From contig JAGVKQ010000019.1 in NCBI GenBank assembly GCA_020050435.1, positions 33,644 through 97,643 of the forward strand: a stretch of 64,000 nucleotides of DNA, given 5' to 3'. Both the position numbers and the translations under genes were made by a program. Every line of letters begins with the position of its first letter. Position 1 is the first letter of the stretch. The notes beneath the pieces were generated by a model. It was not told the origin of the DNA, made no database searches, and was given only the letters and a program-made list of their open reading frames with translations. The DNA is from Candidatus Caenarcanales bacterium. GTDB lineage: Bacteria; Cyanobacteriota; Vampirovibrionia; 2-02-FULL-35-15. Positions 11,145 through 54,006 of this stretch are shown in pieces.

Positions 11145-11591
11145 TTAATGAATACTTGCTGGGTTTGAAGCTTGTATACCTAATCTTTTTATAGTTCTAT
11201 AATGATGATTTATTATAATTGCATTACGAGCATCCATGAATGCTTCTTTTAAATCTTCTTTTTGAATACTGATGCCTGTTTCTAAATACTGAGCAACTTT
11301 TTCTAATTCTTCACTTGATTTGTTTAAAAGTTCTTCTCCTTCAATTGTTGTATTTAAAGAATCTTTTTTTACAAGTGCTAATGCTTTTCTTGTTTCTTTA
11401 GATGCAAGCTTCATGTCATTATTCAGGAAGTTTTCACTTGCTTCATTTGAGTACTCCTCAAAAGCATTCAACAAAGTTACTTCCTCTAACTTATTTACTT
11501 TAATAGGGGGAATTTGCATTTGAGCAAATGCATTACCTGTTGTAAAAACTGAAAGGGCTAATGATATTGCTATAAACCTTATACTATTCAT
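11145..11591 (-). CDS. Secreted YfdX-like helical protein
   Basis: Signal peptide; ASENFL..D.K.AS.E.RKA...L.KS.EELE..A pattern; paralog at 25365-25703. Confidence 0.55.
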   Translation of the reverse strand: MNSIRFIAISLALSVFTTGNAFAQMQIPPIKVNKLEEVTLLNAFEEYSNEASENFLNNDMKLASKETRKALALVKKDSLNTTIEGEELLNKSSEELEKVAQYLETGISIQKEDLKEAFMDARNAIIINHHYRTIKRLGIQASNPASIH

Positions 11592-11609
11592 TTTTATTCT
11601 TTTATTCCT

Positions 11610-12575
11610 TTATTCATTTATAAGAATTAATTTAGTGCCACTGTTTAATATTGCTTCATCTCCTTTAGAAAGAAGAGCAGCAGCAGCACCTATTCCGCCA
11701 CCAATTGCAGCACCTGACCATGCACCACGTCCCGGCATTCCACCAGCTATAGCACCTACTGCTGTTCCTAATGCAGCGCCAGTTCCAGCACCAATTGCAG
11801 TTTGTCCAAGACCCTTTGCTACTCTTTCAGCACCACTAGCTCCTTTGATGTTATAAGTGGCACCTATAGGATAATTACCATTAGGAGTTTTTATATTTGT
11901 GAATCTAATACCTAGTGATCCAGGATTTCCTATTTTAAATCTTCTAGCAGGCACACTAGTAATCACACTACCAGTTAATACACCGCCTGTTGGAATGATA
12001 ATACCTGAGGCTACAACAACAGGAGAACTAAGAGAGGCTCTTACAGAATCTCCTACCATACTCACGGCAGAGCTTAAAGTAGTTTCTAAATTAGTATCTA
12101 ACCTTGCACCAGCTGGTACATAAACAGTTCTTGCAATAACAGCATTCTGAGTCACGGTACCTGTTTCAGTTACAGATGTTGTTGTAATTTGTGAATATCC
12201 TTCAGGAATAGCTTGTGCAGGAATTGCTTTTGGTTGTACATAACTTGTACTTGGAGCAACTGGTTTTTTATATGTTGTCATTGTCGAAGCTGGTTTAGTA
12301 GGTGTATTTTGTTTACTAGGTACTTGTACATTATTTGCTACTGTTGGATTTTGATTTTCTAAAAGAGGTAAATCAGATACAATCTCTTGTTTAAAAGTTT
12401 TATTCATATAGATATTTTGTCCAATAATAACTAAAAGTAAAATTGCTACTACTCCAATTGATATAACCATTAGCTTATTTGACTTAGGCTTGCTTGCCCT
12501 TGTTCTTTCATGTGTAGAGGTAGATGAAGAACCGTTTTCAGTGTTTTTTTGATCGTTGTGTGTGTATATTGGCAT
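11610..12575 (-). CDS. Membrane-anchored protein with VirB10/TrbI-like beta domain and glycine zipper
   Basis: TM segment, P/T-rich linker, VPAGARLDTNLETTLSS..VGD, IGAGTGAALGTAVGAIAGG; GAGGAG RBS before ATG 12575. Confidence 0.65.
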   Translation of the reverse strand: MPIYTHNDQKNTENGSSSTSTHERTRASKPKSNKLMVISIGVVAILLLVIIGQNIYMNKTFKQEIVSDLPLLENQNPTVANNVQVPSKQNTPTKPASTMTTYKKPVAPSTSYVQPKAIPAQAIPEGYSQITTTSVTETGTVTQNAVIARTVYVPAGARLDTNLETTLSSAVSMVGDSVRASLSSPVVVASGIIIPTGGVLTGSVITSVPARRFKIGNPGSLGIRFTNIKTPNGNYPIGATYNIKGASGAERVAKGLGQTAIGAGTGAALGTAVGAIAGGMPGRGAWSGAAIGGGIGAAAALLSKGDEAILNSGTKLILINE

Positions 12576-12608
12576 AGTATAACTCCTCATTTATTTATTG
12601 ATAAACCA

Positions 12609-12702
12609 AGCATAATCTATTTGCAAGTAATTAAAATCCACCTAAAGATATCCAAAAGAATGATCTATTCTCCTATATTTATTACGAGTGTAAAGCTATC
12701 TT
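12609..12702. promoter_or_regulatory. Divergent promoter pair sharing box 12648-12664
   Basis: Minus strand ATCATTCTTTTGGATAT with TATGCT 50 bp on; plus strand TATCTT at 12697. Confidence 0.65.
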
Positions 12703-32485: not shown

Positions 32486-32971
32486 TTAAGAAATCATGCT
32501 TCTTAGCATCCAAGCAGTTTTTTCATGAGTTTGCATTCTTTGTGTAAGTAAATCACAGGTCGATTCATCGCTAGCTCTTTCAGCTATAGGGAAAATGGAT
32601 CTGGCTGTTTTAACGACAGCTTCATTTCCTTCGACGAGAAGTTTAATCATTTCTTCTGCAGCAGGAATAGATGGTTCTTCTTTTATGCTGGATAATTTAG
32701 TGAATTCACTATATGAACCTGGTGAGAAAAATCCTAAAGCTCTAATTCTCTCTGCAATAAGATCTACTGCTAATGCTAACTCATTATATTGTGCCTCAAA
32801 CATTAGATGTAGAGTATTAAACATTGGTCCAGTAACATTCCAGTGGAAGTTATGTGTTTTTAAATAAAGAGTATAAGTATCAGCAAGCAATCTCGATAAG
32901 CCATCTGATATTTCTTTTCTATCTTTTTCATTAATTCCTATATCTATTTGAGGTAATATTTTTGTTTGCAT
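32486..32971 (-). CDS. dps: Dps DNA-protection protein
   Basis: [42 protein letters not shown]. Confidence 0.95.
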
Positions 32972-33947: not shown

Positions 33948-35078
33948 ATGGGAACAGCTACATTGAACATAGAAACAACTCCAGAATTAAAAGTAATAGA
34001 AGAATTAAAACTTATCTCAAAGAGTGAATATCGCTCTGTATTGAGAGAACACATTGCTGTTGAAGATTTTCAGCCAGATAAAAACGAACTTTTACGTTAC
34101 TCTTTATTTATGTCTATATATATAGTCGGAGTTTACAGCATAGTAAATCTTCCCTTAGTTCTTCCATTTAAGATGCTCATATCAATTGTTATGGGAATAT
34201 CGCTTGCTTCATTAACTTTTTTTCTCCATGATTTAATGCATGGAGCAGTTCTAAAATCAAGAAGAGCTACTTATCTTATTGGACTATCAATAGGAGTTTT
34301 AAATCTTTTTGCACCACTTTTTTGGCAAAGAGTTCATAATTTTCACCATGCAAAAACTGGTGGAATAGATGATCCTGATCGTTTATATATATGGACTGAA
34401 AAACCAAAAAATGCTTTTGAAAGATTTATATATAAGTTAAGAGTTTCCAATAGTGCATCTAATAAAATTGCAAGTGTTGCTGGAATGTCTTTTGGTTTTT
34501 TCTGGTACTTCTCTACCATGCTTTATGCAATGATGCAAAAACCAGAAAGCTATAAGGCTGATAGTCAATATCAAGGTATAAATCAGCTTTTTAAACCCAA
34601 AGAAAAACTTTTTATTTTTGGAGAATTGCTTTTTATCCTCTCATTCCAAGTTTTCATGTTTTCAGTAGTTGCCCAAGGAAACCTTATAACCTATGTTTTA
34701 ACGTCATTCTTGCCTATTCTAATAGCACACTTCACATCAATGCTATATATCCACACTAATCACTTTCTCTCACCACTTACTATGGAAATAGATGATCCTT
34801 TAATTAATTCTCTTTCATTGAAAAACAGTAAGGTCGTAGATGCAGTATTCTCAAATTTTTCGCATCACGTTGAACATCATTTATTCCCAGCAATGAGTTC
34901 ATCACACTATCCAAAAATCAGAAAATTGCTTTTAGAGATTTATCCAGGTCGTTTTCAGTTAATGCCAATGTATGATGCTGTAAAACAACTTTGCTCTACT
35001 CCAAGAATATATGCTGATCCTACAACCCTCGTTACTTATGATAAAGATGAAAAATTTAGTTGTTTAATGCCACATTAA
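33948..35078 (+). CDS. Membrane fatty-acid desaturase-family protein (paralog 1)
   Basis: His boxes HDLMH, HNFHH, HHVEHH. Confidence 0.88.
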   Translation: MGTATLNIETTPELKVIEELKLISKSEYRSVLREHIAVEDFQPDKNELLRYSLFMSIYIVGVYSIVNLPLVLPFKMLISIVMGISLASLTFFLHDLMHGAVLKSRRATYLIGLSIGVLNLFAPLFWQRVHNFHHAKTGGIDDPDRLYIWTEKPKNAFERFIYKLRVSNSASNKIASVAGMSFGFFWYFSTMLYAMMQKPESYKADSQYQGINQLFKPKEKLFIFGELLFILSFQVFMFSVVAQGNLITYVLTSFLPILIAHFTSMLYIHTNHFLSPLTMEIDDPLINSLSLKNSKVVDAVFSNFSHHVEHHLFPAMSSSHYPKIRKLLLEIYPGRFQLMPMYDAVKQLCSTPRIYADPTTLVTYDKDEKFSCLMPH

Positions 35079-37385: not shown

Positions 37386-38570
37386 TTAAGAGTTATTTAG
37401 TTTTAATGCTTTTGCAAGAGCAGGAATGGTAGTTCCTTGTACCACCATAGATATAAGAACAACGAAAAAGACTACATTAAAAATCATTTCTGATTTTGGT
37501 ACATGGGCTAATAATGGAAAAGTTGCCAGTATTATTGGGACTGCACCACGTAGTCCTAGCCAGGAAATAAGGATTTTTTCTTTAAAACTTAGTTTTGTGA
37601 AAATTAAGCTTGCAAAAACACTAATAGGACGAGCAATCAAAGCAAGAAATATAGATGCAAGTATGCCTTTATCCATTACGTGAACTAAGTGTGATGGATA
37701 AACTAAGAGTCCAAGTGTAAAAAACATTATTATTTGCATTAACCATATAAGTCCATCATGAAAGTTCATTATTTCAATTTTGTTTTGAATTATGGATTTA
37801 CTAAGCATTATGCCAAGAATATAAACCGCTAAAAACCCACTACCATGAAAAAAAGTTGTTATACCATAGGTAAACAGAACAAATGAAATAGAAAGAACTG
37901 GATACAGTCCTTCATACTCAAGGTTTATAGAATTTAGAATTGATACTGCTAGCATCCCCATGCATAAGCCCATTGCTGTTCCGATAACAAACTGGCTAAA
38001 GAAAAAGCCTATAAACTCAGCATAGCCAGATAGTCTATTTGTAACTAAGCTTGTCAAAGCTATAGTCATAAAAACAGCCATAGGGTCATTTATTCCTGAC
38101 TCCAGCTCAACCAATGATAAAAGTTTATGATTAATGGCAAGTTTTTTTTCTTTTATAAGTGAAAAAACTGCAGCTGGATCTGTGGGTGAAATAATTGCAC
38201 CTAGTAGAAGCCCTTCAAATAAAGTAAAGCCAAGTAAATTTTTTGAAAGTATACAAATTAATACTGCAGAAAAAACTACACCTACAGTGGAAAGTGAAAT
38301 ACCTTCCCATATAATAGCTTTTGTTCGTTTCCATTTTGAACTTAATCCACTTGAAAATAAAATAAATATCAATGCAATAATTCCAAGAAATTGTGCTAAT
38401 CCAGCATCATTAAAATAAATACCTCCAGGTCCGTCTGATCCCGCCAGCATTCCAATAATTAAAAAAAGTAAAAGAGCTGGAATGTTAAGTTTTGAAGAAG
38501 CTTTGCTGGAAAATACACTTAGCATTAAAAAAACTGATGAAATTAAAATTATTTGTTCGGTTTCAAGCAT
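37386..38570 (-). CDS. K+/H+ antiporter, NhaP2/CvrA-like (membrane domain only)
   Basis: GMLAGSDGPGGIYF, TDPAAVFS, LESGINDPMA, GLRGAVPIILA; no TrkA-C tail. Confidence 0.88.
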   Translation of the reverse strand: MLETEQIILISSVFLMLSVFSSKASSKLNIPALLLFLIIGMLAGSDGPGGIYFNDAGLAQFLGIIALIFILFSSGLSSKWKRTKAIIWEGISLSTVGVVFSAVLICILSKNLLGFTLFEGLLLGAIISPTDPAAVFSLIKEKKLAINHKLLSLVELESGINDPMAVFMTIALTSLVTNRLSGYAEFIGFFFSQFVIGTAMGLCMGMLAVSILNSINLEYEGLYPVLSISFVLFTYGITTFFHGSGFLAVYILGIMLSKSIIQNKIEIMNFHDGLIWLMQIIMFFTLGLLVYPSHLVHVMDKGILASIFLALIARPISVFASLIFTKLSFKEKILISWLGLRGAVPIILATFPLLAHVPKSEMIFNVVFFVVLISMVVQGTTIPALAKALKLNNS

Positions 38571-38573
38571 AGC
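38523..38573. repeat. 51-bp direct repeat, copy 1 (5' end of antiporter gene)
   Basis: CATTAAAAAAACTGATGAAATTAAAATTATTTGTTCGGTTTCAAGCATAGC identical to 46144-46194. Confidence 0.95.
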
Positions 38574-39082
38574 TTTAATTTTACAGTACTCTTTTTAATT
38601 TTTTTTGAATTCAGGAGTTCTTTACAAAGTAATAATCCATTTAATATTTCACTAGGAGTAGGGGGATTGCCTGGGATATAAATATCAACCGGTAAAAAAT
38701 CATCTACTTTTCCTAAGCAAGCATAACTTTTCTCATATATAGAACCATTGCAAGCCCCATCTCCAATAGCTATAACTATTTTGGGAGAAGGCATTGCATT
38801 GTAAGTTTTTTCCATTGCAATTTTTAAATGTCTTGTTACGGGGCCACTTACAGTTAAAACATCTGCATGTCTTGGAGAGGCGGTAAAATCAATTCCAAAT
38901 TGTGTGAGATCATAAATCGGGTTAGACAAAGCTAATAACTCAGCTTCTTCTGCATTACAAGACCCAGTATCTAAATGACGTATAAGCAATGATTTACTTA
39001 GAGCATGTTTAGTATTTTTATCAAGCTTTTTAATCCTAGATAATTCAGTTCTGATGATTTCAGTATTTAACATTTTTAACAT
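38549..39082 (-). CDS. HyfI/NuoB-like small subunit with atypical Fe-S ligands
   Basis: IRHLDTGSCNAEE, ASPRHADVL.VSGPVT, IAIGDGAC, VDIYIPGNPP. Confidence 0.85.
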   Translation of the reverse strand: MLKMLNTEIIRTELSRIKKLDKNTKHALSKSLLIRHLDTGSCNAEEAELLALSNPIYDLTQFGIDFTASPRHADVLTVSGPVTRHLKIAMEKTYNAMPSPKIVIAIGDGACNGSIYEKSYACLGKVDDFLPVDIYIPGNPPTPSEILNGLLLCKELLNSKKIKKSTVKLKLCLKPNK

Positions 39083-39094
39083 TCCCCCCCCCTC

Positions 39095-40672
39095 TTATCT
39101 GTCAACGCATGCATAACAAAGATTAAAACTTTTATTAACTAGTGGACTATCAGGAACTATGTTTCTTCCTTTTGTTGCTTGGATTACCCCTCTCCAATTC
39201 ATATATGATGCACTTCTTACATGCCACCTTGAAATTTTATTTTTCTTATCTAAAATCAAACAGTGAATTAAAGAGCCTTTTGCTGATTCTACTGCTCCGA
39301 TTCCAGGTTCTAGCATAGATGAAAATAGTTCTGGGATTTCTTCTTTTATTTTTCCTGTAGGTAGTTTATCTATAATTTTTCGAATAAAATCAAAAATTGA
39401 ATAAATATCTTTAACTCTAACCTTAGTTCTAGCTAATGCATCTCCTTCCGTTTCAATATTGATTTCTGGAGTGAAATCATGGTAACCTGCATATTTGAAA
39501 TCTCTTCTTAAATCAATATCTATTCCTGAAGCTCGTGCTGCTGGTCCCACTATTCCAAATTTCTTTGCTTGAATAAAGCTTAACTCTCCTGTAGTTTCAA
39601 GACGATCAAGAAGTGTATCAGAATCGATAATGATTTTTTCTAATGATTTGAATTCTTTTTTTAAGTTTTGTAATTCGTCTTTTAAAGATTTAAACTCATC
39701 ATCATTAATATCTCTTTTTAAACCACCAACAGTATTTAATCCTCTGAAAAATCTATGATTTGTAAGATTGAAAGTGATTTGCATAGCTTTTTCTCTAAAG
39801 CTAGCTGCTTGCATGGAAGCTATAGCAAAACCACTAGCAGAACATATAGCAGACAAGTCAGCCAGATGGCTATTTAATCTTTCTAGTTCTAAGCAAATAG
39901 TTCTTATATATGTTGCTCTTTTAGGAATATTTATTTTACTTAGACTTTCTACAGCCTGACAGTATGCCGTAGAATGCGAATAAGAACACATTCCACACAC
40001 ATGTTCTGCCAGTATAAGCCCTTCTTCTATGGTTTTTCCTTCTGCACTTTTTTCAATACCTTTATGTGTATAGAAAAGCTGAGCATTAAAATCAAGTATT
40101 TGTTCACCAATAGTGCAAAACCTTAAATGTCCTGGCTCTATTATTCCTGCATGGATTGGTCCTACTGCTACTTGATGCATTCCTTCAGCATGAGGCTGTG
40201 TGAACTGATGAGGGACTTCTGAGATTTCAATTTCTGTATTTAACTTAAAATCTTTTCGCATAGGGAAGTGTTTTCCATGAGGAAAGTCTCCATGCAGAAC
40301 TAGTGGTAGCAAATCTACTCCTTCAGCAACTATTCCAAACATATCATGAATCTCACGCTCAAACCATTCTGCCGCTGGAATTAACTTACTGATGGTGGGA
40401 TATGAGGGTTTTGTCTCATCTAAACAAACTTTAAATGTAAGTAAAGAAGCTGTATTTAAAATTAGAAAAATTAAATGCAGTTTATATTTCTTATTTAATG
40501 ATCTTTCATCTATGGCAAACATTGTTAGAAATGATACTTTTTCTTTCAATAAAACTTCAATGGAATCTTGTAAATCTTCTTTTTGAATGTTACACAATAA
40601 ATGATTGGTGTTGATGGTGCTTTCATCAAGGTTACATTTTTTTAATACAGATATTATGTTTGATTTATTCAT
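39095..40672 (-). CDS. HyfG/HycE-like large subunit (NuoC+NuoD-like fusion) of group 4 hydrogenase / Ehr-type complex
   Basis: FEREIHDMFG, VGPIHAGIIEPGH, EHVCGMCSYSH, ELERL, NKSFNLCYACVDR at C-terminus. Confidence 0.9.
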   Translation of the reverse strand: MNKSNIISVLKKCNLDESTINTNHLLCNIQKEDLQDSIEVLLKEKVSFLTMFAIDERSLNKKYKLHLIFLILNTASLLTFKVCLDETKPSYPTISKLIPAAEWFEREIHDMFGIVAEGVDLLPLVLHGDFPHGKHFPMRKDFKLNTEIEISEVPHQFTQPHAEGMHQVAVGPIHAGIIEPGHLRFCTIGEQILDFNAQLFYTHKGIEKSAEGKTIEEGLILAEHVCGMCSYSHSTAYCQAVESLSKINIPKRATYIRTICLELERLNSHLADLSAICSASGFAIASMQAASFREKAMQITFNLTNHRFFRGLNTVGGLKRDINDDEFKSLKDELQNLKKEFKSLEKIIIDSDTLLDRLETTGELSFIQAKKFGIVGPAARASGIDIDLRRDFKYAGYHDFTPEINIETEGDALARTKVRVKDIYSIFDFIRKIIDKLPTGKIKEEIPELFSSMLEPGIGAVESAKGSLIHCLILDKKNKISRWHVRSASYMNWRGVIQATKGRNIVPDSPLVNKSFNLCYACVDR

Positions 40673-42150
40673 AATATTCCTTTTCCATGAATAATTTCTA
40701 CGGATCTATTTAATAATTTAAACAAGGGTGCTGGTATCCAGACACTTAATAATGTAATGATAAACAGTGGTATTACTAATGCTAAAACTCCTAATTTGCT
40801 TACTTCTTCTCTAAGATTATTCTTTTCTTCAGTGCTGTTTCCTATAGTCATATTCATAGTTTGGTACATTATTGCACCAAAAATAATAAGTGAAAATAAT
40901 ATAAATAATGAGCTAATAACCCAATGCTTTTCAAGTATTCCAGCTCTGATTATATAAAACTCACTTAAGAAAACTGAAAAAGGTGGTGATCCCATTAAAG
41001 CAAGTGCTCCGATTAAAAATATTGTTCCACTAAATGGCATTATATTTATGGCAGATTTGATTTTACTTATATCTTTTGTTTGAAATTTTAATGAGAGGTT
41101 TCCTGCTGTAAAGAACATTAAAGTTTTTGTGATTGCATGATTAAACATGTGGAATACTGCTCCGAATATAGACAGTGGACTTCCTATTCCTAATCCAGTC
41201 ACAATTATTCCTATGTGTTCAAGGCTGCTATATGCTAATAAACGTTTGATCTGATTTTGTGTCATTATAAATGGAACTGATAGTGCAATAGAAAACATTC
41301 CAAAAAACAGTAACATGTTATTGGTAAATGCTGCACCGATAGATTCATTAGCAATAATAGTAAATCTAATAATGCTGTAAAGACTGCACTTTAAAAGAAC
41401 TCCGGAAAGTAATGCACTGACTGGTGTAGGTGCTTCACTGTAAGCATCTGGTAACCATGAATGCATAGGAGCAAGACCTACTTTTGTTCCATAGCCGATT
41501 AGTATAAATGCAAAAGCTAACTTTATTATATTGGGATTAAATTTCTTTGATATAGAAAGTAAATAATCCCAGTTTAAACTTAAAGACTCAACTCCTCCAG
41601 AGTGAATTGCAGCATAGAAGCATAGAATGATTCCTATCATTGCAAATGCAATTCCAACACTACAAAGTATTATATATTTCCAGGCAGCTTCAATGGAAGT
41701 GCTCTTATTGTAGTACCCTACTAGGAAAGCAGAAATCAGTGTAATTACCTCTATTCCAACCCAGACAAGTCCTATGTTATTAGAAATTACAACTGTTAGC
41801 ATTGTGAGCACAAAAATATTCAGTAAAAAATAGAATTTTTTCAATTTCCATAAAGGGAAAGAATATTCCTCATTACTTTTAATCATATAATCGGCTGAAT
41901 ACAAAGAAACAAGCAAGCTAACAGTGCCAATTATTAAAATTAGTAATCCACTGAAAGCATCTATATAAACCAGATTGTTGAAAGATTTAATTACGCCTAG
42001 TTTAATTACGTTATTTAATAATTTAATTACAACTAAAAGTAAACACAAAGATCCCGATATCTGAATAGGAGCAAACTGTTTTTCATTTTTAGGCAATAAG
42101 CAAAGAATCGCAGTAATGAAAGGAATTAGTATAAGTAAAATTATTTCCAT
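40669..42150 (-). CDS. hyfF: HyfF-like antiporter-like membrane subunit
   Basis: EAAWKY, GYGTKVGLAPMHSWLPDAYSEAP, KRLLAYSSLEH. Confidence 0.85.
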   Translation of the reverse strand: MEIILLILIPFITAILCLLPKNEKQFAPIQISGSLCLLLVVIKLLNNVIKLGVIKSFNNLVYIDAFSGLLILIIGTVSLLVSLYSADYMIKSNEEYSFPLWKLKKFYFLLNIFVLTMLTVVISNNIGLVWVGIEVITLISAFLVGYYNKSTSIEAAWKYIILCSVGIAFAMIGIILCFYAAIHSGGVESLSLNWDYLLSISKKFNPNIIKLAFAFILIGYGTKVGLAPMHSWLPDAYSEAPTPVSALLSGVLLKCSLYSIIRFTIIANESIGAAFTNNMLLFFGMFSIALSVPFIMTQNQIKRLLAYSSLEHIGIIVTGLGIGSPLSIFGAVFHMFNHAITKTLMFFTAGNLSLKFQTKDISKIKSAINIMPFSGTIFLIGALALMGSPPFSVFLSEFYIIRAGILEKHWVISSLFILFSLIIFGAIMYQTMNMTIGNSTEEKNNLREEVSKLGVLALVIPLFIITLLSVWIPAPLFKLLNRSVEIIHGKGIL

Positions 42151-42152
42151 TT

Positions 42153-42824
42153 TTATCCTTTTAATTTACTTAATTTGCTTACATCTATGGAGTCGAATGA
42201 TTGTTTTATTCTAAGTGTCCAGACTCCCATAATTAGTACTCCTATAAATAAATCTAGAGAAATTCCCATTTCAACTACAAAAGGCATTCCAAATACTGTG
42301 TCTAATGTAAGGGCGAAAATCCCATTTTCCATTACATACAAGCCAATAATTTGTGTGAGAGCTTTTTTTCTACTTATCATTATTAATAAGCCAATTAATA
42401 TAATGGATATTGCAGCATTAAATAGTCCTGGGTAATATGCTATCCTTCCAAAATTTTGTGTCATTGATAAGCCGTAAACAAATGCAATTAATGCAGAGGC
42501 AATTAATACTGTAGTTGAAGGACTTATTATCGGTACAACCTCTTTGTTTGCCTGACTTTTATCAATTACAAAATTCAAAGCAAGTGGTATTACAATGCAT
42601 TTTCCTAAAAGAGTTATTATTGCTATTCGCAGAGTTTCTGGATTATTAATTGAAAATCCTATTATCAGGGTTATTATTACCAGGCATGAAGATTGAAGTA
42701 AATAAAATTTAACTATAGATTTTAGTCTATTACTTCCTGTAATTAAAATGCTCATTAAAAGTAAAACTACAGTAAAGTAACTGATTATTGGAGTTGTAAA
42801 TTCTTGTGTTAGAAAGTTATTCAT
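42153..42824 (-). CDS. hyfE: HyfE-like membrane subunit
   Basis: SRKKALTQIIGLYVMENGI, PFVVEMG..LD. Confidence 0.85.
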   Translation of the reverse strand: MNNFLTQEFTTPIISYFTVVLLLMSILITGSNRLKSIVKFYLLQSSCLVIITLIIGFSINNPETLRIAIITLLGKCIVIPLALNFVIDKSQANKEVVPIISPSTTVLIASALIAFVYGLSMTQNFGRIAYYPGLFNAAISIILIGLLIMISRKKALTQIIGLYVMENGIFALTLDTVFGMPFVVEMGISLDLFIGVLIMGVWTLRIKQSFDSIDVSKLSKLKG

Positions 42825-43792
42825 GGCATTGAAACCCTTCCTAATTCTTGAATAACCAGAATTAATGCTAGTACTGAAATTGCAAAAGAAGTTACAAGTA
42901 TGTCTTTCACTCTAAACAATCTGACCTTTGCAATAACAGTTTCACCTAGAGTAATAATAATTGAAATAATAAGAATTTTTAAAATATAAAATGCTAATCC
43001 AGTACTTATGCTAATTAAAGTAAATTTGTTTATAATTCCCCAAGGAAAAATTAAATTACAAATTAAAGAAATTATTATTAATTGCTTTAACCAATTAGCC
43101 CAAACCATTAACCCAAGTAATTTTCCGGAGTACTCTAATAACATTCCTTCATGAATCATAGTAAGTTCATAGTGAGTTTCCTGATTGTCAAATGGAATCC
43201 TTCCTATTTCAGCAATAGAAATTATAAACAATGCAAATATGGCAAGAACATAGCTAATGGAAGGAAAAGTTAAATCATGTTTTACAAGTGAGGTTATTAT
43301 AGTAGGAATTTGCGTTGAGTTAGATAGTAAACATAAAACAATGAGAGAAAGAAGCATAACTGGCTCAATTAAAACAGAAAGCATCATTTCTCTACTGCTA
43401 GCCATTCCACAAAACCCACTTCCTGGTTCCATTGCTGCAAGAGACATAAAAAATCTTCCTAAACTAAGCAAGTAAACAAAAAGAATTACTCCGCCAAACA
43501 TACCAATACTCTCAATTTCAAAAAACATTGGTACAAATAGTCCTGCAGTAAGAGTTGAAGAAAAAACAATTAAAGGAGTTGTAGAGAAAATCCATGATGT
43601 TTGATCTGATATAACTGTTTCCTTGTGAAAGTATTTAGTTAAATCATAGTATCCTTGAAACAGTGGAATCCCTTTTCTTCCCTGTAATAAACCCTTCATT
43701 TTTTTAATTACAGAATTTACCATTGGAGAAAGTAAAAGCAGTCCAATTATTTGACTTAATATTAGTATTATATTTTTTGTTTCAATATTCAT
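42821..43792 (-). CDS. hyfC: HyfC/HycD (NuoH-like) membrane subunit
   Basis: QGRKG.P..Q.YYDL.K, SSREM....L.EP, EIGRIPFDN.ETH.ELTMIHE.M.LEYSG; ATGA overlap with hyfB stop. Confidence 0.88.
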   Translation of the reverse strand: MNIETKNIILILSQIIGLLLLSPMVNSVIKKMKGLLQGRKGIPLFQGYYDLTKYFHKETVISDQTSWIFSTTPLIVFSSTLTAGLFVPMFFEIESIGMFGGVILFVYLLSLGRFFMSLAAMEPGSGFCGMASSREMMLSVLIEPVMLLSLIVLCLLSNSTQIPTIITSLVKHDLTFPSISYVLAIFALFIISIAEIGRIPFDNQETHYELTMIHEGMLLEYSGKLLGLMVWANWLKQLIIISLICNLIFPWGIINKFTLISISTGLAFYILKILIISIIITLGETVIAKVRLFRVKDILVTSFAISVLALILVIQELGRVSMP

Positions 43793-45753
43793 AAGCTTAC
43801 CCAAATAATAGAAATTACTAAAGCAATAAAAATATAAGTCAAGTAAACCTGCACAACTCCTGACTGAACGGTTTTGACTTTGTAGGAGAATTTATTTAAG
43901 ACATCATAAATGGGAAGATAAATCCACTTGTAGTAAAAATCTTTTGGGATATGTAGTCCTGAAAAAATGACCTCTATGGGTTGAATGAAGCCAGTAGGAG
44001 TGTATTCAAACTCAGCCTTAGGACTTATTCCACAACTCCATGTTTCATCTTTTCTTGTAGTGGTTTTATTATTAACTAACTTAGGGATAATAAATCCAAG
44101 AAAAGAGAAACTTAAAAGTAGCAAAAGAATTAGAGTTGGTGAATAATGTCCTGAAACAGTATTATTTATGTGTAATATTTGATTATTAGAAAATGCCGCT
44201 GAGTTAACTTGACTTAAATTAATTAAAGTAGAAGCAGCTGGACAAATCAATGAAATTGTAAATAATGGAAACAGTCCTATTAATAAACATAGACTTGAAG
44301 ATATAAATAAACTGAATATCATAGACTTGGAAGATTCTTGAGCATACTCTACTAAATGCGTTCTAGGCATTGCCATAAATATTCCTGAAAATAATTTTAT
44401 AAATGTTGCAATGCATATAGCACCAGTTAAACCTAATAATGAAGCGGAGATTATTCCTATAGTTTTTATAACATTTGAAGAAGTGTTAAACAGAGCCAGT
44501 AAATTCTGAAATATAAGCCATTCACTTGCAAAGCCATTTAGTGGAGGAAATGCACAGATAGCCAGGACTCCGATCAAGAAAAACAAAGATGTTTTTGGCA
44601 TCTTTTTTATTAATCCGCCTAATTTGGAAAAACTTCTTGTATGAGTTGTTGAGATTACTGAACCTGAAGCCATAAAAAGTAATGATTTAAAAATAGAGTG
44701 ATTTAGGGTGTGAAATAAGCTTATAACTAAAGAAATAGCTGCAAGGTCATAGAGTCTTAAGCTGTAAAAAATAATTCCAGTGCTGATGGGAATGAAAATT
44801 ATGCCAATATTTTCTATGCTGCTATATGCAAGAAGTCTTTTTATATCATTTTCCTGAGAAGCGTAGATAATTCCAACCAATGCTGTAGATACCGCTACTA
44901 AAAGTAAACAAACTCCCCACCAATATGAATTAGGGTTTAAAAACTCAAAAGTTACACGTAATAATCCATATATTGCTGTTTTAATCATAACTCCAGACAT
45001 TAGGGCAGATATATGGCTAGGTGCTGCTGGATGTGCTTCTGGAAGCCAGATGTGTAATGGAATTAATCCTGCTTTAGTTCCAAAACCAATCAATGCAAAA
45101 ATAAACAATAAAAGATTTAAATTATCAGGCATTTTTTTATAAACGCCATGGAATGATTCAAATGAAAAGCTTCCAGAATAGTTTGCCATTATTAAAAATA
45201 AAAATAATAAAAAAGCTGATCCAATATGCGTCATTAAGAGATAGATAAAACCTGCAGATCTTGATTCATCACTAGAAGTGTTAGAAATAATTAGCCCATA
45301 GGATATTAAGGTCATTGATTCCCAGAAGATTAAAAACAGCAGTGCATCATTAGCACTTACCAAAAGAATCATTGATAATAAAAACAAATTGTATAAAAAT
45401 ACTAAAAGAGGTATTGATGTTTTTGTAGATTCTGATTTTAAATAGCCAATTGAAAAAATTGAAACAGAAATTGAAATTAATGAGATTAAGAAAATAAAAA
45501 ATGCTGAAAATGGGTCTACTGAAAGAATGGGAGTTAATAATGGAATATTTATAGGTAATTCTATTTTAAAACTGTTCTTGTGGAGTAAAACATTGACTGA
45601 ACTAAGAAGGCTGAAAAGTGCAGCAATTATTGCGAAAATACTAGATGTATATATGCCAAGCTTATTTGAATACAGTCCTAATACGAGTGAAAATAATGCC
45701 CCGATAATAAAAAACAATATAGAGAATTCAAGCAGTAAAATATTATTTTCCAT
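43789..45753 (-). CDS. hyfB: HyfB-like antiporter-like membrane subunit
   Basis: FWESM, GFGTKAGLIPLHIWLPEAHPAAPSHISALMSG, KRLLAYSSIEN, PPLNGFASEW, TWSCG. Confidence 0.88.
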   Translation of the reverse strand: MENNILLLEFSILFFIIGALFSLVLGLYSNKLGIYTSSIFAIIAALFSLLSSVNVLLHKNSFKIELPINIPLLTPILSVDPFSAFFIFLISLISISVSIFSIGYLKSESTKTSIPLLVFLYNLFLLSMILLVSANDALLFLIFWESMTLISYGLIISNTSSDESRSAGFIYLLMTHIGSAFLLFLFLIMANYSGSFSFESFHGVYKKMPDNLNLLLFIFALIGFGTKAGLIPLHIWLPEAHPAAPSHISALMSGVMIKTAIYGLLRVTFEFLNPNSYWWGVCLLLVAVSTALVGIIYASQENDIKRLLAYSSIENIGIIFIPISTGIIFYSLRLYDLAAISLVISLFHTLNHSIFKSLLFMASGSVISTTHTRSFSKLGGLIKKMPKTSLFFLIGVLAICAFPPLNGFASEWLIFQNLLALFNTSSNVIKTIGIISASLLGLTGAICIATFIKLFSGIFMAMPRTHLVEYAQESSKSMIFSLFISSSLCLLIGLFPLFTISLICPAASTLINLSQVNSAAFSNNQILHINNTVSGHYSPTLILLLLLSFSFLGFIIPKLVNNKTTTRKDETWSCGISPKAEFEYTPTGFIQPIEVIFSGLHIPKDFYYKWIYLPIYDVLNKFSYKVKTVQSGVVQVYLTYIFIALVISIIWVSL

Positions 45754-45759
45754 TTATTT

Positions 45760-46083
45760 TTATCTCTTCGATAGTCCCTTTAATAAATTTTGTATATCTA
45801 TCAATTGTTCATTAAATATTTTTTTAGTTTCATCAAGTAGTTTAAAAATAATAGAATGTCTAATAGAGTAGTAAATATTATTTCCAGATTTTCTAGTGAT
45901 TACTATATTATTATTTCTAAGGATTGCTAGCTGTTGAGAAACGTTTGGAGCTTCAATACCCAGTCTTTTTTTTAATTCATTTACCGTAAGCTCTCCATTG
46001 CGGAGTTCATCTATTATTTGAATCCTAATTGGGTTGGCAAGTGCTTTAAAAAATGTTGCTTTAAATTCTCTTAGTCTCTTCAT
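45760..46083 (-). CDS. ArsR/SmtB-family transcriptional regulator (no cysteines)
   Basis: FFKALANPIRIQII..L..GE.TV.EL...LG.E..NVSQQLAILR; ATG 46083 preferred over GTG 46128. Confidence 0.88.
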   Translation of the reverse strand: MKRLREFKATFFKALANPIRIQIIDELRNGELTVNELKKRLGIEAPNVSQQLAILRNNNIVITRKSGNNIYYSIRHSIIFKLLDETKKIFNEQLIDIQNLLKGLSKR

Positions 46084-46110: not shown

Positions 46111-46130
46111 ATATGCGAATATTCGCACAT
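46111..46130. promoter_or_regulatory. Palindromic operator, probable ArsR autoregulatory site
   Basis: ATATGCGAATATTCGCACAT (perfect 14-bp core TGCGAATATTCGCA) abutting minus-strand -10 TATACT. Confidence 0.7.
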
Positions 46131-46217: not shown

Positions 46218-46949
46218 CTAGTTCTGCTTCCTTTCTAATCTAATATTTGCTTCTTGTTCTTTACCATTAGCATTTGCAGAATTAGAGTTTCTTTGATTAA
46301 TAGGGAGTTTAGAAATAACTAAATTGTAAAAGGGCAGACTTCTTACCCACTCATTAATTGCAAACTGTTCAACTGTACGGCAACCTACACCTACAATTGG
46401 ATTTTCTGTATCAATAAATAAAAGTCTGCATAGTGTTCTACTTAAAAATTCATCTGATAGGGTTTTATAATCAAATTGGCTAGCCTTTAAAACTCCTATT
46501 CCAATAAGACCTATTCTTGAGCCTAATCTAGCGAACATATTTAAAAACCCTGTTCCCATTCTTTTAAACTTATCTATTTGTCTGTTTGGATCGACTATGG
46601 CTGTACCCATAGTAATCTCTAATGATTTTCTAATTCCAGTAAGAAACATATTTAAATTAATTTCTTTTATTTGCTTCTGGAAAAGGTGTAAAAGCGAACG
46701 AGAAGAAAGATATCTGACATTTTCAGTTATAAAACGAAAGCCTATTCTATTTGCGTAGTTTTCCATATTTGTCTCATAGTATCTACCAGCACCCCTAATA
46801 AAAGAATCAAGAATACTAGGAAGTCCCATGATGGGAGTGTTATTAGCATTTTCCATAGAAATCTTTTGCAGATCATTTTTACCAGAAGATGGCAATGTCC
46901 TAATAATAGGTTGAGGAATAAAATATGAATATATAGGATTTATAGGCAT
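46218..46949 (-). CDS. Hypothetical protein downstream of a poly-Cys leader
   Basis: 243-aa ORF, no motif recognised. Confidence 0.65.
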   Translation of the reverse strand: MPINPIYSYFIPQPIIRTLPSSGKNDLQKISMENANNTPIMGLPSILDSFIRGAGRYYETNMENYANRIGFRFITENVRYLSSRSLLHLFQKQIKEINLNMFLTGIRKSLEITMGTAIVDPNRQIDKFKRMGTGFLNMFARLGSRIGLIGIGVLKASQFDYKTLSDEFLSRTLCRLLFIDTENPIVGVGCRTVEQFAINEWVRSLPFYNLVISKLPINQRNSNSANANGKEQEANIRLERKQN

Positions 46950-47010: not shown

Positions 47011-47038
47011 AAAAAAGTTAGTCTAAGGTCAGACTAAC
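47011..47038 (-). terminator. Attenuator-like terminator hairpin overlapping the leader stop codon
   Basis: Minus strand GTTAGTCT-GACCTT-AGACTAAC-TTTTTT. Confidence 0.75.
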
Positions 47039-49382: not shown

Positions 49383-50087
49383 ATGAAGTCTATCAAATTA
49401 CTAATTCTTACAACAATATTTTTAATAAACTCTTTTCCTGCATTTGCTCTGGAAAATGACTTAGGACTTTGGACCCCTGTTTACATAAAGCTTCCAGTCA
49501 CTAAAAAACTTCAGACACAATTAGAAATAAATCCTCGTATTCAGGAAAATGTTTCTGATTTCAATCAGTTATTAATTAGGCCATCTGTTGGATATCAAGT
49601 AACTAAACATCTTTCTCTCTGGCAAGGTTATGCATGGATAACGAATTACATTCCTAAATTTGTAAGTGAACAAAGATTATGGGAGCAAATTCTTTATGAA
49701 AGAGAGTTTGGTAGGTGGGGTCTTTCAAGTAGAACCAGACTAGAAGAAAGATTCATACAAAATGTTCATGGAGTTCCTGTACGGTTTCGTGAAATGCTTA
49801 GAGCACAATATACTCTTGATAAAAAGAAAAACTGGGCTTTTGTAGTTTATGATGAATCATTTATAAATCTTAGTACTCATTTTCGTGGACCACAGGCAGG
49901 AGTAGATCAGAATAGATTTTTTGTGGGGCTAAATAGAAAAGTGACTAAATATGCAAATGTAGAGGGGGGATATTTAATGCAGTACTTTAATATTCAGTCC
50001 CCTACTCAGGACATAATTAATCACAATGTTTTAGTAAACTTGTACATTAACCTACCTCAACTAGCTCATTTGAAAAGCCTTGATTGA
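49383..50087 (+). CDS. DUF2490 outer-membrane beta-barrel protein
   Basis: Signal peptide; LIRPSVGY, EQRLWEQ, RTRLEERF, DE.F, DQNRFFVG. Confidence 0.85.
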   Translation: MKSIKLLILTTIFLINSFPAFALENDLGLWTPVYIKLPVTKKLQTQLEINPRIQENVSDFNQLLIRPSVGYQVTKHLSLWQGYAWITNYIPKFVSEQRLWEQILYEREFGRWGLSSRTRLEERFIQNVHGVPVRFREMLRAQYTLDKKKNWAFVVYDESFINLSTHFRGPQAGVDQNRFFVGLNRKVTKYANVEGGYLMQYFNIQSPTQDIINHNVLVNLYINLPQLAHLKSLD

Positions 50088-50203: not shown

Positions 50204-51352
50204 ATGGAATTAAGCAGTCACCCGAACGTTAAGTTGTTATCAAAAAAAGATTACAGAGATCAACTAGCAAGTAGTTTGAGTGAAGATGATCATAAAAGTG
50301 ATAAATCTGAACTCTTCAGATATTTTGTATTAATGTCAGTCTATCTTTTTGGAATATATACTTTATCTGCGTCTGAAAATTTACTTTTAAAAATTATACT
50401 TTCTTTGGGTTTAGGTATTATTCTTGCAGCTATAAGTTTCTTTCTTCATGATTTAATGCATGGTTCCATAGTTAAATCAAAAACCTTAATGTATTTCATT
50501 GGTATAACTGCAGGAGTCTTTAATTTTTTCCCACCATTGTTTTGGCAAAGATTGCATAATTTTCATCATGCAAGAACAGGGAAATTAGATGATCCAGATA
50601 GAAATTGGACATTAGATGAAATGCCAGTGAAACCTCATGAAATTATTATTTATAAATTAAGGATGTCTAATGAATGCTATAACAAAATTTCCAGTTTTAT
50701 TTTTATTGCAGTTGGTTTTTTAGCATATTTTATAAGCAATATTTTTTATGGTGTTTATGCTACGAATCTTAGTGAGCAAAGTTCAATTAAATATAGAGGA
50801 CTAAGAAATCTCTTTAATACAAAGGATAGGATGTTTGTTACTCTTGAGCTTTTGACCATATTTTCTGTTCAGTTATATCTTTTTGCAGTGATTTCCAACT
50901 TCTCACTAATCACTTTTCTTTTGGTTTCTACTATTCCTTTACTTATCTGTCATTTTATTCTAATGTTATATATTCACACTAATCATATATTTTCTCCTCT
51001 TACTGGTGAAGTTGATGATCCTCTTATAAACTCTGTATCTATAAAAAACAGTAAGTTCGTAGATTTTATTTTCTCTAATTTTTCTCACCACGTCGAGCAT
51101 CATTTATATCCTTCCATGTGTTCAGCTAAATATCCTAAAGTCAGAAAACTAATTCAGGAAAAATTCTCTGATCGTTTTCAACTTATGACTATGAAAGATG
51201 CTATCTCTTACCTTTTTAATTCTCCTAGAATCTATGCAAATGCATATAGCTTGGTAGGAATTCATACTGATGAAAAGCATCACTGTGTAATGCCTGAAGA
51301 ATTAAAAAATTTATTTAAGGTTCAAACTAAGCAACCTGTAAGCCATATATAA
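50204..51352 (+). CDS. Membrane fatty-acid desaturase-family protein (paralog 2)
   Basis: HDLMH, HNFHH, HHVEHH; YIHTNH..SPLT.E.DDPLINS shared with paralog 1. Confidence 0.88.
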   Translation: MELSSHPNVKLLSKKDYRDQLASSLSEDDHKSDKSELFRYFVLMSVYLFGIYTLSASENLLLKIILSLGLGIILAAISFFLHDLMHGSIVKSKTLMYFIGITAGVFNFFPPLFWQRLHNFHHARTGKLDDPDRNWTLDEMPVKPHEIIIYKLRMSNECYNKISSFIFIAVGFLAYFISNIFYGVYATNLSEQSSIKYRGLRNLFNTKDRMFVTLELLTIFSVQLYLFAVISNFSLITFLLVSTIPLLICHFILMLYIHTNHIFSPLTGEVDDPLINSVSIKNSKFVDFIFSNFSHHVEHHLYPSMCSAKYPKVRKLIQEKFSDRFQLMTMKDAISYLFNSPRIYANAYSLVGIHTDEKHHCVMPEELKNLFKVQTKQPVSHI

Positions 51353-52695: not shown

Positions 52696-53067
52696 TTACT
52701 CAGGTGAGTGCCATTCCTTATGTCTTTCTGCCCTTTTTTCAACCATCTTGTCGAACTTTGCTTGTTGTTCTGGATTTAAGACTGCTCTTATTTGCTGGTC
52801 CGTAGACTTTCTAATAGCTTCCATTTTTGGATGGACCTCATCAAAAATAGAATCAACTTTTGTTTTTTGTTCAGCAGTTAAATCTAATTTACTATTTAAG
52901 CGATTTGAAATCTTTTGTTTAAATTTCCCCTTCTCTCCTTTTTTACAGCCACAACCTTGATGTTTATCTGATTTAGCTGCTCCTTGTTTATTGCATGCAA
53001 ATGCATAGCCACTAGTTATACATGTGCTGATAGCAACTACAGTAAGTATTTGTTTCCAATTAATCAT
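52696..53067 (-). CDS. Spy/CpxP-like (LTXXQ) periplasmic helical protein
   Basis: Signal peptide; KLDLTAEQK.KV..IF...IRAVLNPEQQAKF. Confidence 0.75.
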   Translation of the reverse strand: MINWKQILTVVAISTCITSGYAFACNKQGAAKSDKHQGCGCKKGEKGKFKQKISNRLNSKLDLTAEQKTKVDSIFDEVHPKMEAIRKSTDQQIRAVLNPEQQAKFDKMVEKRAERHKEWHSPE

Positions 53068-53432
53068 ATTTCCTCCCTTGACTCACCTATTAGAACTTCT
53101 AAATCTGAATCTTCACTATTTGAAAATGCCCAGTAGTATGAATCTGGCACTTCAGCTAGTAAAATATTTTCTGTACTTATAGACTCATTTATACTGAATA
53201 TACTAAAAATAAAAGAAGCGGCTATTGCTGTAATCGTAACAAATGATATTGATTTTTTAAATGGAATGACAGTTGCTTTTTTCTCATCTTCTTTCTTAAG
53301 TTCATAAATTTGTTGCATTACATTATCTGTGAAATCGGAGGAGAAATCAGCTTTCCTGGTTTTCCCAACCAGACTAAATAATTTTTCTTCTATTTCTTCG
53401 TAATTCATTGATTCCTCTACTTTTTTAGACAT
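53064..53432 (-). CDS. Putative membrane anti-sigma factor
   Basis: Directly downstream of ECF sigma; DFTDNVMQQI followed by one TM. Confidence 0.65.
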   Translation of the reverse strand: MSKKVEESMNYEEIEEKLFSLVGKTRKADFSSDFTDNVMQQIYELKKEDEKKATVIPFKKSISFVTITAIAASFIFSIFSINESISTENILLAEVPDSYYWAFSNSEDSDLEVLIGESREEI

Positions 53433-54006
53433 TTATCGGCTCCGTTAAGTGTCGAACTTGCTTAGCCACCTCTTTTCTTGCCCTTTTTAATCTTCCTTTA
53501 ACTGAATCAATTGAACAATGGAGAATATCTGCTATTTCTTCATAACTTAATTCATTGACTTCACGTAGTATTAAAATTGTTCTGTATCTTTCTGGAAATG
53601 CTGAAATTAGCTGCCTAAGCAATTCTTCTTCTTCAATTACCAGAGTGTGATCTTCAGAAGTAAATAATAAAGCCTCTATTTTATCCCCTTCTTTTTCTAT
53701 CAACCCTTCTAGGGAGATAAGATTCTGCTTATTTCTTTTTCTAAGTACATCACTACAGTGATTAAAGGTTATTCTAAATAGCCATGTGGAAAAGGATGAT
53801 TGTCCTTTAAAGCTTTTTAGTCCTTGGTAAGCTTTTAGAAAAATTTCTTGGGCAGTATCATCAGCTAAGTCCTTATCTGATAAAAAGTTAAAACAATAAG
53901 TCCGCACTTTTTGCTGATACTTATTAATAATTTCCCTATAGAGGTTTTTATCCCCAGAAAGAATTTTTTGTATTATTTTTAAATCTTCTATGTTTTTGTC
54001 CCACAA
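53425..54006 (-). CDS. ECF RNA polymerase sigma factor
   Basis: DDTAQEIFLKAY..L.SFKG.SSFSTWLFRI..N; LSYEEIA.IL.CSI.SVK.RL.RAR. Confidence 0.92.
   Translation of the reverse strand: MWDKNIEDLKIIQKILSGDKNLYREIINKYQQKVRTYCFNFLSDKDLADDTAQEIFLKAYQGLKSFKGQSSFSTWLFRITFNHCSDVLRKRNKQNLISLEGLIEKEGDKIEALLFTSEDHTLVIEEEELLRQLISAFPERYRTILILREVNELSYEEIADILHCSIDSVKGRLKRARKEVAKQVRHLTEPINV

Follow-up and report, generated by a model that had tools for sequence, protein, structure and literature searches.

We analysed a 64,000-nucleotide stretch of DNA from Candidatus Caenarcanales bacterium (assembly GCA_020050435.1, contig JAGVKQ010000019.1, positions 33,644 to 97,643 of the forward strand), referred to as the window in the rest of the text, which carries on its minus strand a six-gene cassette resembling the membrane-bound energy-converting [NiFe] hydrogenases and led by an arsR gene (arsR-hyfB-hyfC-hyfE-hyfF-large subunit-small subunit). 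The first gene of the operon codes for an ArsR/SmtB-family repressor (45760..46083; Pfam HTH_5, 1.5e-11; NCBIfam HTH_metalloreg, 86 bits for a cut-off of 55). It is followed by a hyfB-like gene coding for an antiporter-type subunit of the NuoL/MrpA kind (43789..45753; PF00361, 2e-58; NF005086 'hydrogenase 4 subunit B', 609 bits, below the cut-off of 667), a hyfC-like gene coding for a NuoH/HycD-like subunit (42821..43804; PF00146, 3e-38), a hyfE-like gene coding for a small membrane subunit (42153..42824; NF008556 'hydrogenase 4 membrane subunit', 2.2e-26, below its cut-off, and no Pfam match) and a hyfF-like gene coding for a second antiporter-type subunit, related to NuoN/M and MrpD (40669..42150; PF00361, 7e-51; NF005044, 469 bits, below the cut-off of 610). 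The last two genes, with overlapping-to-adjacent spacing, code for the large subunit (39095..40672), a NuoC-NuoD fusion of 525 residues like HycE (PF00346, PF00329 and PF00374; 7z0s_E, 1.7e-82), and the small subunit (38549..39082), a NuoB/HycG-like protein of 177 residues (PF01058, 2.8e-25; alignments to 6cfw_J and 7z0s_G). The genes are tightly packed, all junctions being either overlapping or at most 12 nucleotides long, and the open reading frames (ORFs) of the window and scans with Pfam and NCBIfam revealed neither a HycF/NuoI-like gene in the cassette nor space for one. The same scans found no NuoI, NuoA, NuoJ or NuoK in the cassette, nor a NuoB with the cysteines of the N2 cluster. The cassette codes for a group-4f/Ehr-type complex in a Melainabacteria-type (Vampirovibrionia) genome. 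A first-pass annotation, made from the sequence alone, had pointed out that a ferredoxin-like subunit is missing; this is true, but the absence is shared by the whole six-gene family.

The motif codons of both subunits were read directly from the DNA, and both proteins were aligned using HMMER with the corresponding subunits of two solved complexes, E. coli HycE and HycG (7z0s) and Pyrococcus MbhL and MbhJ (6cfw). A MAFFT alignment with E. coli HycE, HycG, NuoCD and NuoB agreed on all motifs. The CGMC and CYAC motifs claimed for the large subunit were confirmed at the codon level: C226-G-M-C229 (39986-39997) and the C-terminal F-N-L-C519-Y-A-C522-V-D-R, followed by a TAA codon, bring C226/C229 and C519/C522 into register with the Ni-site CxxC motifs L1 and L2 of HycE and MbhL. 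His224 (CAT, 40001-40003), just before the first motif, replaces an Arg, as had been claimed. The Arg of the E..RG motif, which sits over the [NiFe] active site, is replaced by Lys465 (AAA, 39278-39280) in E-S-A-K465-G. Altogether, the large-subunit residues align opposite RvCGiC, PRG and DPCysCtDR of the references. The replacement of this second Arg had also been reported before and is real, but the same state is found in E. coli NuoCD, which reads EATKG at this site in the MAFFT alignment.

In the small subunit, C42-N-A-E45 (38948-38959), G-D-G109-A-C111 (38750-38764) and P-G-N139-P-P (Asn139 codon, 38666-38668) align opposite CNGC, GAC and PGCPP of the references. Of the four ligands of the proximal [4Fe-4S] cluster, C42 (ligand 1) alone remains, the others having become E45, G109 and N139 (ligands 2, 3 and 4). 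The codons thus bear out the Cys-to-Glu change in GSCNAE and the Cys-to-Asn change in PGNPP noticed by the first-pass annotation. The third motif, GDGAC, had been read as a Cys shifted by two positions. The sequence is as described, but since many canonical relatives have the true ligand and, close to it, a Cys at the position of C111 (GDCAC, GACAC, GTCAC), the motif is better read as the replacement of the ligand Cys by Gly next to a common, retained non-ligand Cys.

Both halves of this pattern are conserved. Among the best 120 homologues of the large subunit, 66 are of the same type as the window's (referred to as type A), with 44-87% identity to the query. The four Ni-site cysteines are present in 66/66 type-A sequences, down to 44% identity, while the retention of the query's eight other cysteines ranges from 1 to 61 rows out of 66, and only 72 of the 525 columns are invariant. 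Position 224, which is Arg in hydrogenases, is occupied by His in 53, Asn in 12 and Gln in one of these rows (His or Asn in 65/66), and the Lys at the Arg position of E..RG is found in 65/66. In the other 54 homologues, mostly from Bacillota, both Arg are mostly kept, a few rows differing. All 120 large subunits terminate at a D-R/K/L motif. The end at CVDR without a cleavable tail, reported by the first-pass annotation, is therefore a trait of the whole family and not of this locus.

The small-subunit search returned 879 homologues (E <= 0.001), of which the best 120 were examined. A Cys at ligand position 2, 3 or 4 was found in a single one, 119/120 having none, and ligand 1 is a Cys in 76 and lost in 44. 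The replacements themselves are conserved, with E45 present in 111/120 and position 139 occupied by Asp in 91 and Asn in 27 (118/120 together). Other cysteines are also well kept (C111 in 119/120, C122 in 108/120, C153 in 110/120), and no other cassette protein is as well conserved across related genomes as the small subunit (58-81% identity compared to 51-74% for the large subunit). In a wider set of 151 rows, made up of the 150 best representatives at 50% identity and the query, all four ligands are present in 107 and two or fewer in 28; four of the latter are the query and three type-A clusters, and a few of the others may be truncated.

Given this conservation, the small subunit might still bind an Fe-S cluster through C42, C111, C122, C153, E45 and D/N139, in which case the complex would remain a redox enzyme. 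The conservation of all these residues but C42 in most homologues and the position of C111, two residues from the lost ligand, speak for this possibility. We nevertheless regard it as highly improbable: C42 is missing from more than a third of the homologues (44/120), C111 is not a relocated ligand as its counterpart accompanies the true ligand in many canonical sequences, and the cassette lacks any electron-input subunit. To our knowledge, a cluster held by one or two cysteines plus carboxylates is unprecedented for this fold. For the non-canonical cluster ligation proposed by the first-pass annotation we thus found no positive evidence.

The loss of cofactor ligands and the missing maturation genes (see below) could also mark a decaying, functionless remnant. 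However, the six frames of the window are intact, as are nearly all those of 14 related loci, small-subunit identity stays at 58-81% from one family of the class to another, the same substitutions recur throughout the clade, and a conserved putative operator precedes the operon (see below). Because the four cysteines are retained in 66/66 large subunits, down to 44% identity, and the small-subunit loss is shared by 119/120 homologues, the alignments indicate that the complex is under purifying selection rather than decaying. Decay was ruled out by this conservation across type-A loci, and we give it next to no probability. The inverse pattern of kept Ni-site cysteines and lost small-subunit cysteines is a property of the homologues as well and not of this genome alone.

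The window's genome (2.49 Mb, 30 contigs, 96.57% complete) was searched for the Hyp maturation proteins and for other hydrogenases. HypD, HypC and HypA had no match in it, and HypF and HypE reached only 34 and 69 bits compared to cut-offs of 466 and 252; no [FeFe] hydrogenase was found, and the only other NuoB and NuoD genes of the genome belong to an ordinary NDH-1 with canonical cysteines (contig C1). We then defined as carriers those genomes of a 301-genome sample of the class that contain a small-subunit orthologue at E <= 1e-60. There are 16: the window's own genome, 10 of the 11 further genomes in its family, and 5 spread over three different families. HypD was detected in 85/301 genomes of the class and in 0/16 carriers, which are not 16 independent observations because whole families lack HypD, whether they carry the cassette or not. 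HypF was absent from all three further carriers tested. As a control, HypD was found in 15 of the 22 genomes that carry canonical, Cys-complete relatives. The first-pass annotation had noted the lack of hyp genes in the cassette; this was confirmed, and HypA, C, D, E and F were not found in the genome search. Since Hyp proteins are missing from a 96.57%-complete genome and HypD from all 16 carriers, a standard [NiFe] centre cannot be made in the window's organism.

Could the complex nonetheless be a genuine H2-evolving or H2-consuming [NiFe] hydrogenase that relies on an unknown maturation route and electron path? Both CxxC motifs are intact, the fold is HycE-like (7z0s_E, 1.7e-82), the protein falls within the group-4f/Ehr radiation, and PMC6349859 mentions a 'putative group 4f hydrogenase' in a Melainabacterium. 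Against this stand the absence of HypA, C, D, E and F from the genome and of HypD from all carriers, the absence of proximal-cluster ligands, the Lys at the E..RG Arg in 65/66 type-A rows and the lack of a ferredoxin-like or other input subunit, which together make such an enzyme exceedingly improbable. Because it has neither proximal-cluster ligands nor a ferredoxin-like input nor Hyp proteins, and because two Arg have been replaced (by His/Asn and by Lys), the complex is no longer able to work as a standard hydrogenase. The suggestion that its substrate is not H2 was well founded: without Hyp, proximal ligands, the E..RG Arg and an electron-input subunit, H2 is very unlikely.

HypD also escaped detection in 7 of the 22 carriers of Cys-complete 4f-type cassettes (loci L060, L068, L112, L122, L065, L069 and L071). 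L060 is the isolate Ectobacillus funiculus JCM 11201 (genome G301), from which HypF is missing too, and L068, L112 and L122 are metagenome-assembled genomes (MAGs) of Anaerovibrio. If these absences are not assembly gaps, '4f hydrogenases' that are complete in their cysteines but have no maturation genes extend beyond the Melainabacteria clade.

To place the cassette among its relatives, we sampled one genome per species with a large-subunit alignment pattern and kept the best 80 of 600 stretches, which come from many phyla, include a single Melainabacteria locus and represent a sample rather than a census. These loci share their six gene types with the window's cassette and, like it, have no ferredoxin-like subunit; some are truncated by contig ends. 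Cysteine classes were scored on four large-subunit and four small-subunit ligand columns for 81 large-subunit rows. The large-subunit cysteines are lost and those of the small subunit kept in 48 rows (L-S+, the classic Ehr), both sets are kept in 22 (L+S+, the canonical 4f type) and both are lost in 5 (L-S-); in 3 rows the large-subunit cysteines are lost and the locus contains no small-subunit gene, and 2 are ambiguous. The remaining row, a Melainabacterium, is the only one with the large set kept and the small set lost. The contrast with Ehr complexes, in which only the large-subunit cysteines would be lost, is therefore incomplete: it fits the 48 L-S+ rows, but 5 of the best-80 loci and three Melainabacteria genomes have lost both sets.

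In a quick IQ-TREE analysis of 125 large subunits, the window's type is monophyletic (31 rows; support of 100 in the Shimodaira-Hasegawa-like approximate likelihood ratio test, SH-aLRT) and forms a trichotomy with the canonical clade (support 80) and with a clade in which nearly all Cys-less forms are gathered (95). E. coli HycE and the NdhH of the window's genome fall outside this group (99). The window's type belongs, as a separate lineage, to a 123-row group (SH-aLRT 99) with Desulfitobacteriaceae-type proteins that are called 4f in papers. Close relatives are labelled 'Candidatus Melainabacteria' in their source records. The combination of a Cys-keeping large subunit and a cluster-free small subunit is thus a lineage of its own within the 4f/Ehr radiation, seen once among the best-80 family loci. 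For the small subunit, a FastTree analysis grouped all cluster-free proteins together (support 89), and an IQ-TREE analysis without the ligand columns joined type A with a variant found in another Melainabacteria family, f4 (SH-aLRT 95). Approximately unbiased tests kept both alternatives, an L-S- clade without type A (p 0.73) and type A with L+S+ (p 0.72), and both constrained trees scored above the quick free tree. The f4 variant (L052-L057; genomes G104, G108 and G144) has the order arsR-small-hyfB-C-E-F-large, keeps one of the four Ni-site cysteines in its large subunit (CGDS ... AYAGADM) and has a cluster-free small subunit. Another peculiar arrangement occurs in a Nitrospirota MAG (L079), one contig of which has a complete six-gene Cys-less Ehr cassette in tandem with a second one whose large subunit belongs to a different subclade of the tree.

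Several reports bear on these relatives. PMC6349859 and its preprint describe Melainabacteria with Ehr complexes and one 'putative group 4f hydrogenase'; the published article never uses the word 'cysteine' in its main text. Cys-less Ehr complexes of bacteria from the Candidate Phyla Radiation are covered in PMC7304191, and PMC9888536 assigns a six-gene Desulfitobacterium operon to group 4f. The 2026 preprint 10.1101/2025.08.29.672306 calls group 4f 'previously uncharacterised' and reports the induction of a canonical Methylocystis operon at pH 5, with a log2 fold change of 4.2-4.5. We found no description of a Cys-keeping large subunit combined with a cluster-free small subunit in the full-text literature, a coverage that leaves out most subscription journals and supplements (Supplementary Fig. 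3 and the Notes of PMC6349859 could bear on it).

The two antiporter-like subunits were aligned with E. coli NuoL, NuoM, NuoN and HycC, after verifying the numbers of the key residues in the E. coli sequences. The HyfB-like and HyfF-like proteins both keep the Glu of transmembrane helix (TM) 5, the Lys of TM7 and TM8, the His/His/Lys of TM11 and the Glu of TM12. Judging from these charged residues, the ion-translocating part of the complex looks intact, in agreement with the ion-translocating complex proposed by the first-pass annotation.

The cassette is preceded by a candidate regulatory site. The true start of arsR is the ATG at 46083, orthologues beginning with MK(K/N)L.EFKA, and the alternative GTG at 46128 falls inside a 14-nucleotide palindrome, TGCGAATATTCGCA (46114..46127), located just upstream of the true start. 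Related genomes have the same operon layout: where the sequence extends far enough upstream (12 loci), arsR was found in 9 cases, and in 8 of these the core of the palindrome recurs, with at most one mismatch, approximately 15-30 nucleotides ahead of the gene. The palindrome is likely the ArsR operator. A version of it, TTCGAATATTCGAA, lies in front of arsR in the f4 variant L053. The core of ArsR contains no Cys. Several orthologues (L038, L040, L042, L043 and L045) have a conserved C-terminal tail with 2-3 cysteines (like FVPYIC.W.D.C.PY) that is missing from the window's ArsR. The tail could extend these proteins with a sensor, or could result from each ORF having been read on to the next stop codon. 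A riboswitch ahead of the operon was also considered and discarded: Rfam gave no match at gathering score in the window, with only chance-level ones upstream of the operon, and nothing but three tRNAs in ten related loci. Among the sequencing runs listed for this stretch of DNA there is no RNA data set, and one DNA run shares 0.05 of its sequence words.

The neighbourhoods of 15 type-A loci comprise 73 flanking ORFs, of which 57 + 8 were scanned, 3 lie beyond the locus end and 5, YaaH-like, were left unscanned. An anion channel of the GPR1/FUN34/YaaH family stands beside 9 of the 15 loci (L037, L038, L042-L047 and L051), 4 being recognised by Pfam and 5 through 78-88% identity to a confirmed one; in L037 it is inserted between arsR and hyfB. 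SulP transporters accompany two loci (L044 and L049) and beta-carbonic anhydrases two (L047 and L051). A DUF2490 protein with a signal peptide is found in L038, L043, L050 and L051, and the window has a copy 2.4 kb away from the cassette (49383-50087). A K+/H+ antiporter beside the cassette is unique to the window. These variable neighbours, mostly ion or anion handlers, fit an ion or pH task rather than H2 metabolism.

Taken together, these data describe a conserved six-subunit membrane complex of Melainabacteria (Vampirovibrionia) that is descended from a group-4f-type energy-converting [NiFe] hydrogenase and that most likely moves ions rather than making H2. On the strength of its sequence features, we consider it moderately probable that the complex is a redox-independent H+/cation translocator serving ion or pH homeostasis. 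It would act as a secondary, Mrp-like translocator, in which the NuoB/C/D-like stub would serve as a plug or gate and the four invariant cysteines would bind a Hyp-independent metal (e.g. Zn or Fe) or function as a thiol switch. Several points weigh against this explanation. The movement of ions, of whatever kind, is a prediction. The Cys-less relatives (48 + 5 + 3 of 81 rows) evidently fold without the four cysteines, and their strict retention is therefore unexpected if their role is purely structural. C111, C122 and C153, together with E45 and D/N139, could form some other metal site. The absence of HypD from MAGs is not proof that it is truly missing, and the relatives are not independent samples. 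Finally, the neighbour genes vary and none is common to all loci.

The same observations can be read in favour of catalysis. In that case, the four cysteines would be a new catalytic centre made without Hyp proteins, whether as a metal-thiolate or as a redox-active pair of CxxC dithiols, and this centre would act on a diffusible substrate and directly drive ion pumping without an Fe-S wire. In a concrete form, the reaction would be an energy-coupled interconversion of CO2 and HCO3-, like that of DabAB or of the cyanobacterial NDH-1 Cup modules. The invariance of the four cysteines while others vary, the clade-specific His/Asn224 and Lys465 adjoining the four-Cys site, the beta-carbonic anhydrases (2), SulP transporters (2) and YaaH-type channels (9) at the 15 loci, and the Cys-complete relatives in 7/22 genomes without detected HypD, among them the Ectobacillus isolate that also lacks HypF, are all consistent with such a centre. 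Nevertheless, no substrate or electron partner suggests itself, none of the neighbours is found at every locus, and the carbonic anhydrases are separate neighbouring proteins, so the complex need not be one itself; we also take the window's motifs to be unlike the ligand motifs of beta-carbonic anhydrases. We thus think a new catalytic centre unlikely. Still less probable, in our opinion, is that the four cysteines together with His/Asn224 and Lys465 form a metal-thiolate or dithiol centre that is the sole cofactor of a minimal complex-I-like machine and that drives or gates ion translocation. In its boldest version, at which the neighbour genes might hint by analogy with DabAB or NDH-1/Cup, this machine would be a CO2/bicarbonate-converting or anion-handling engine. 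Were the sole-cofactor proposal true, part of the surveyed 'group 4f hydrogenases', including the Cys-complete forms of Ectobacillus and Anaerovibrio, would not be hydrogenases. Redox-independent ion translocation remains the explanation that we favour.

Other genes surround the cassette. Directly after the small subunit and on the same strand lies a gene coding for a CPA1 K+/H+ antiporter (37386..38570; NF003716, 494.9 bits for a cut-off of 355). That gene shares its first 22 nucleotides with the end of the small-subunit gene. The match covers only the membrane part of NF003716 (model positions 3-392 of 499), and the protein therefore lacks the usual C-terminal soluble domain. No CPA1 antiporter occupies this place in any of the related loci compared; the gene is a genome-specific add-on outside the conserved system. 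On the other side, an ORF of 243 residues (46218..46949, minus strand), without match in Pfam or NCBIfam, ends 89 nucleotides upstream of arsR and may form one transcription unit with it. Contig C3 of the same genome codes for a paralogue with 34% identity, and a terminator-like hairpin lies upstream of the ORF (47017-47038, minus strand). Approximately 6 kb from the cassette, the window codes for an extracytoplasmic function sigma factor, a small ORF and an LTXXQ (Spy/CpxP-like) protein (52696-54006). In the closest relative, L037, a sigma-region-4-like ORF (judged by eye), a zf-HC2 anti-sigma factor and an LTXXQ protein directly follow the cassette (11392-12644). In another related locus (L041, G056:C37), hyfC is split into ORFs of 159 and 192 residues, possibly as a result of a frameshift or an assembly error. 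Elsewhere, the window contains a ferritin-like (Dps-type) gene, two fatty-acid desaturase genes and a gene coding for a 1437-residue DUF5122 beta-propeller-repeat protein (32486-32971, 33948-35078, 50204-51352 and 55140-59453).

These results matter for the way hydrogenases are counted. Hydrogenase surveys classify proteins through the cysteine motifs of the large subunit, and the window's clade would be miscounted by them: it passes this test without having a proximal cluster or maturation genes, so false 'hydrogenase' calls are likely in these relatives of Cyanobacteria. The 'putative group 4f hydrogenase' of one Melainabacterium in PMC6349859 is a candidate for such a miscount. The clade also provides a natural experiment in the story of hydrogenases, Ehr and complex I, in that the Fe-S wire disappeared but selection preserved the thiols of the Ni site, the reverse of the usual order, and it raises the question of what role Ni-site thiols have without Ni-Fe(CN)2CO. 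Together with the HypD-less carriers of Cys-complete relatives, it makes the function of group 4f and Ehr complexes more amenable to testing.

Among known systems, Mrp antiporters, DabAB and NDH-1/Cup show that NuoL/M/N-type subunits can move ions, or couple their flow to a simple non-redox reaction, without a redox chain. They are functional analogies only, as they have no NuoB/C/D/H-like stub with four cysteines and there is no sequence evidence that the window's complex belongs with them. It differs from respiratory complex I and NDH-1 by the absence of the N2-cluster cysteines from its NuoB-like subunit and of NuoI, NuoA, NuoJ and NuoK. The hydrogenase-3 of the E. coli formate hydrogenlyase (7z0s) is the best solved match of the large subunit (1.7e-82), with which it shares the NuoC-NuoD fusion and the CxxC motifs, while the small subunit matches MbhJ (6cfw, 1.7e-30) best and HycG (7z0s, 1.4e-27) second. 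In contrast to the window's cassette, hydrogenase-3 has the ferredoxin subunits HycB and HycF, a full proximal cluster, a cleavable tail with its HycI protease and adjacent hyp genes. In the M. tuberculosis cluster rv0081-rv0087, the gene order opens with a small-subunit-like gene, presumably rv0082, an order that matches the Melainabacteria f4 variant and not the window. According to PMC6901956, an ArsR-type regulator leads and controls the six 'formate hydrogenlyase-like' genes of this cluster, just as arsR leads the cassette of the window.

Group 4f and Ehr are the closest comparisons. With group 4f (Ehf; D. hafniense DCB-2 ACL22288-93, from Desulfitobacterium hafniense, and Methylocystis ehfA-F), the window's type has in common the hyfB-C-E-F-large-small order, the lack of a HycF-like subunit and of a C-terminal tail, both CxxC motifs and the end motif NKSF(E/N)LCY(S/A)C, its large subunit being approximately 40-44% identical to proteins of Desulfitobacteriaceae and other Bacillota. 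However, canonical 4f complexes keep all four Fe-S cysteines of the small subunit (22/22 L+S+ rows) and both Arg (ER.CG.C and ES.RG), and HypD is present in 15 of the 22 carrier genomes. Ehr complexes resemble the window's complex as six-gene, complex-I- and hydrogenase-like membrane modules that combine group-4-like subunits with Mrp/Nuo antiporter-like subunits, and they share with it the N of NKSFNL and, in several members, a leading arsR gene. A cluster-free small subunit also occurs in 5 of the best-80 loci and in the f4 family. The Cys-less Ehr relatives differ in keeping both Arg, of which that of E..RG is Lys in the window's type. Moreover, Ehr is defined, in PMC6349859 and PMC7304191, by the loss of the Ni-Fe cysteines from the large subunit, all four of which the window's type retains. 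With their large-subunit cysteines lost and their small-subunit cluster kept (48/81 rows), most Ehr complexes are the reverse of the complex described here.

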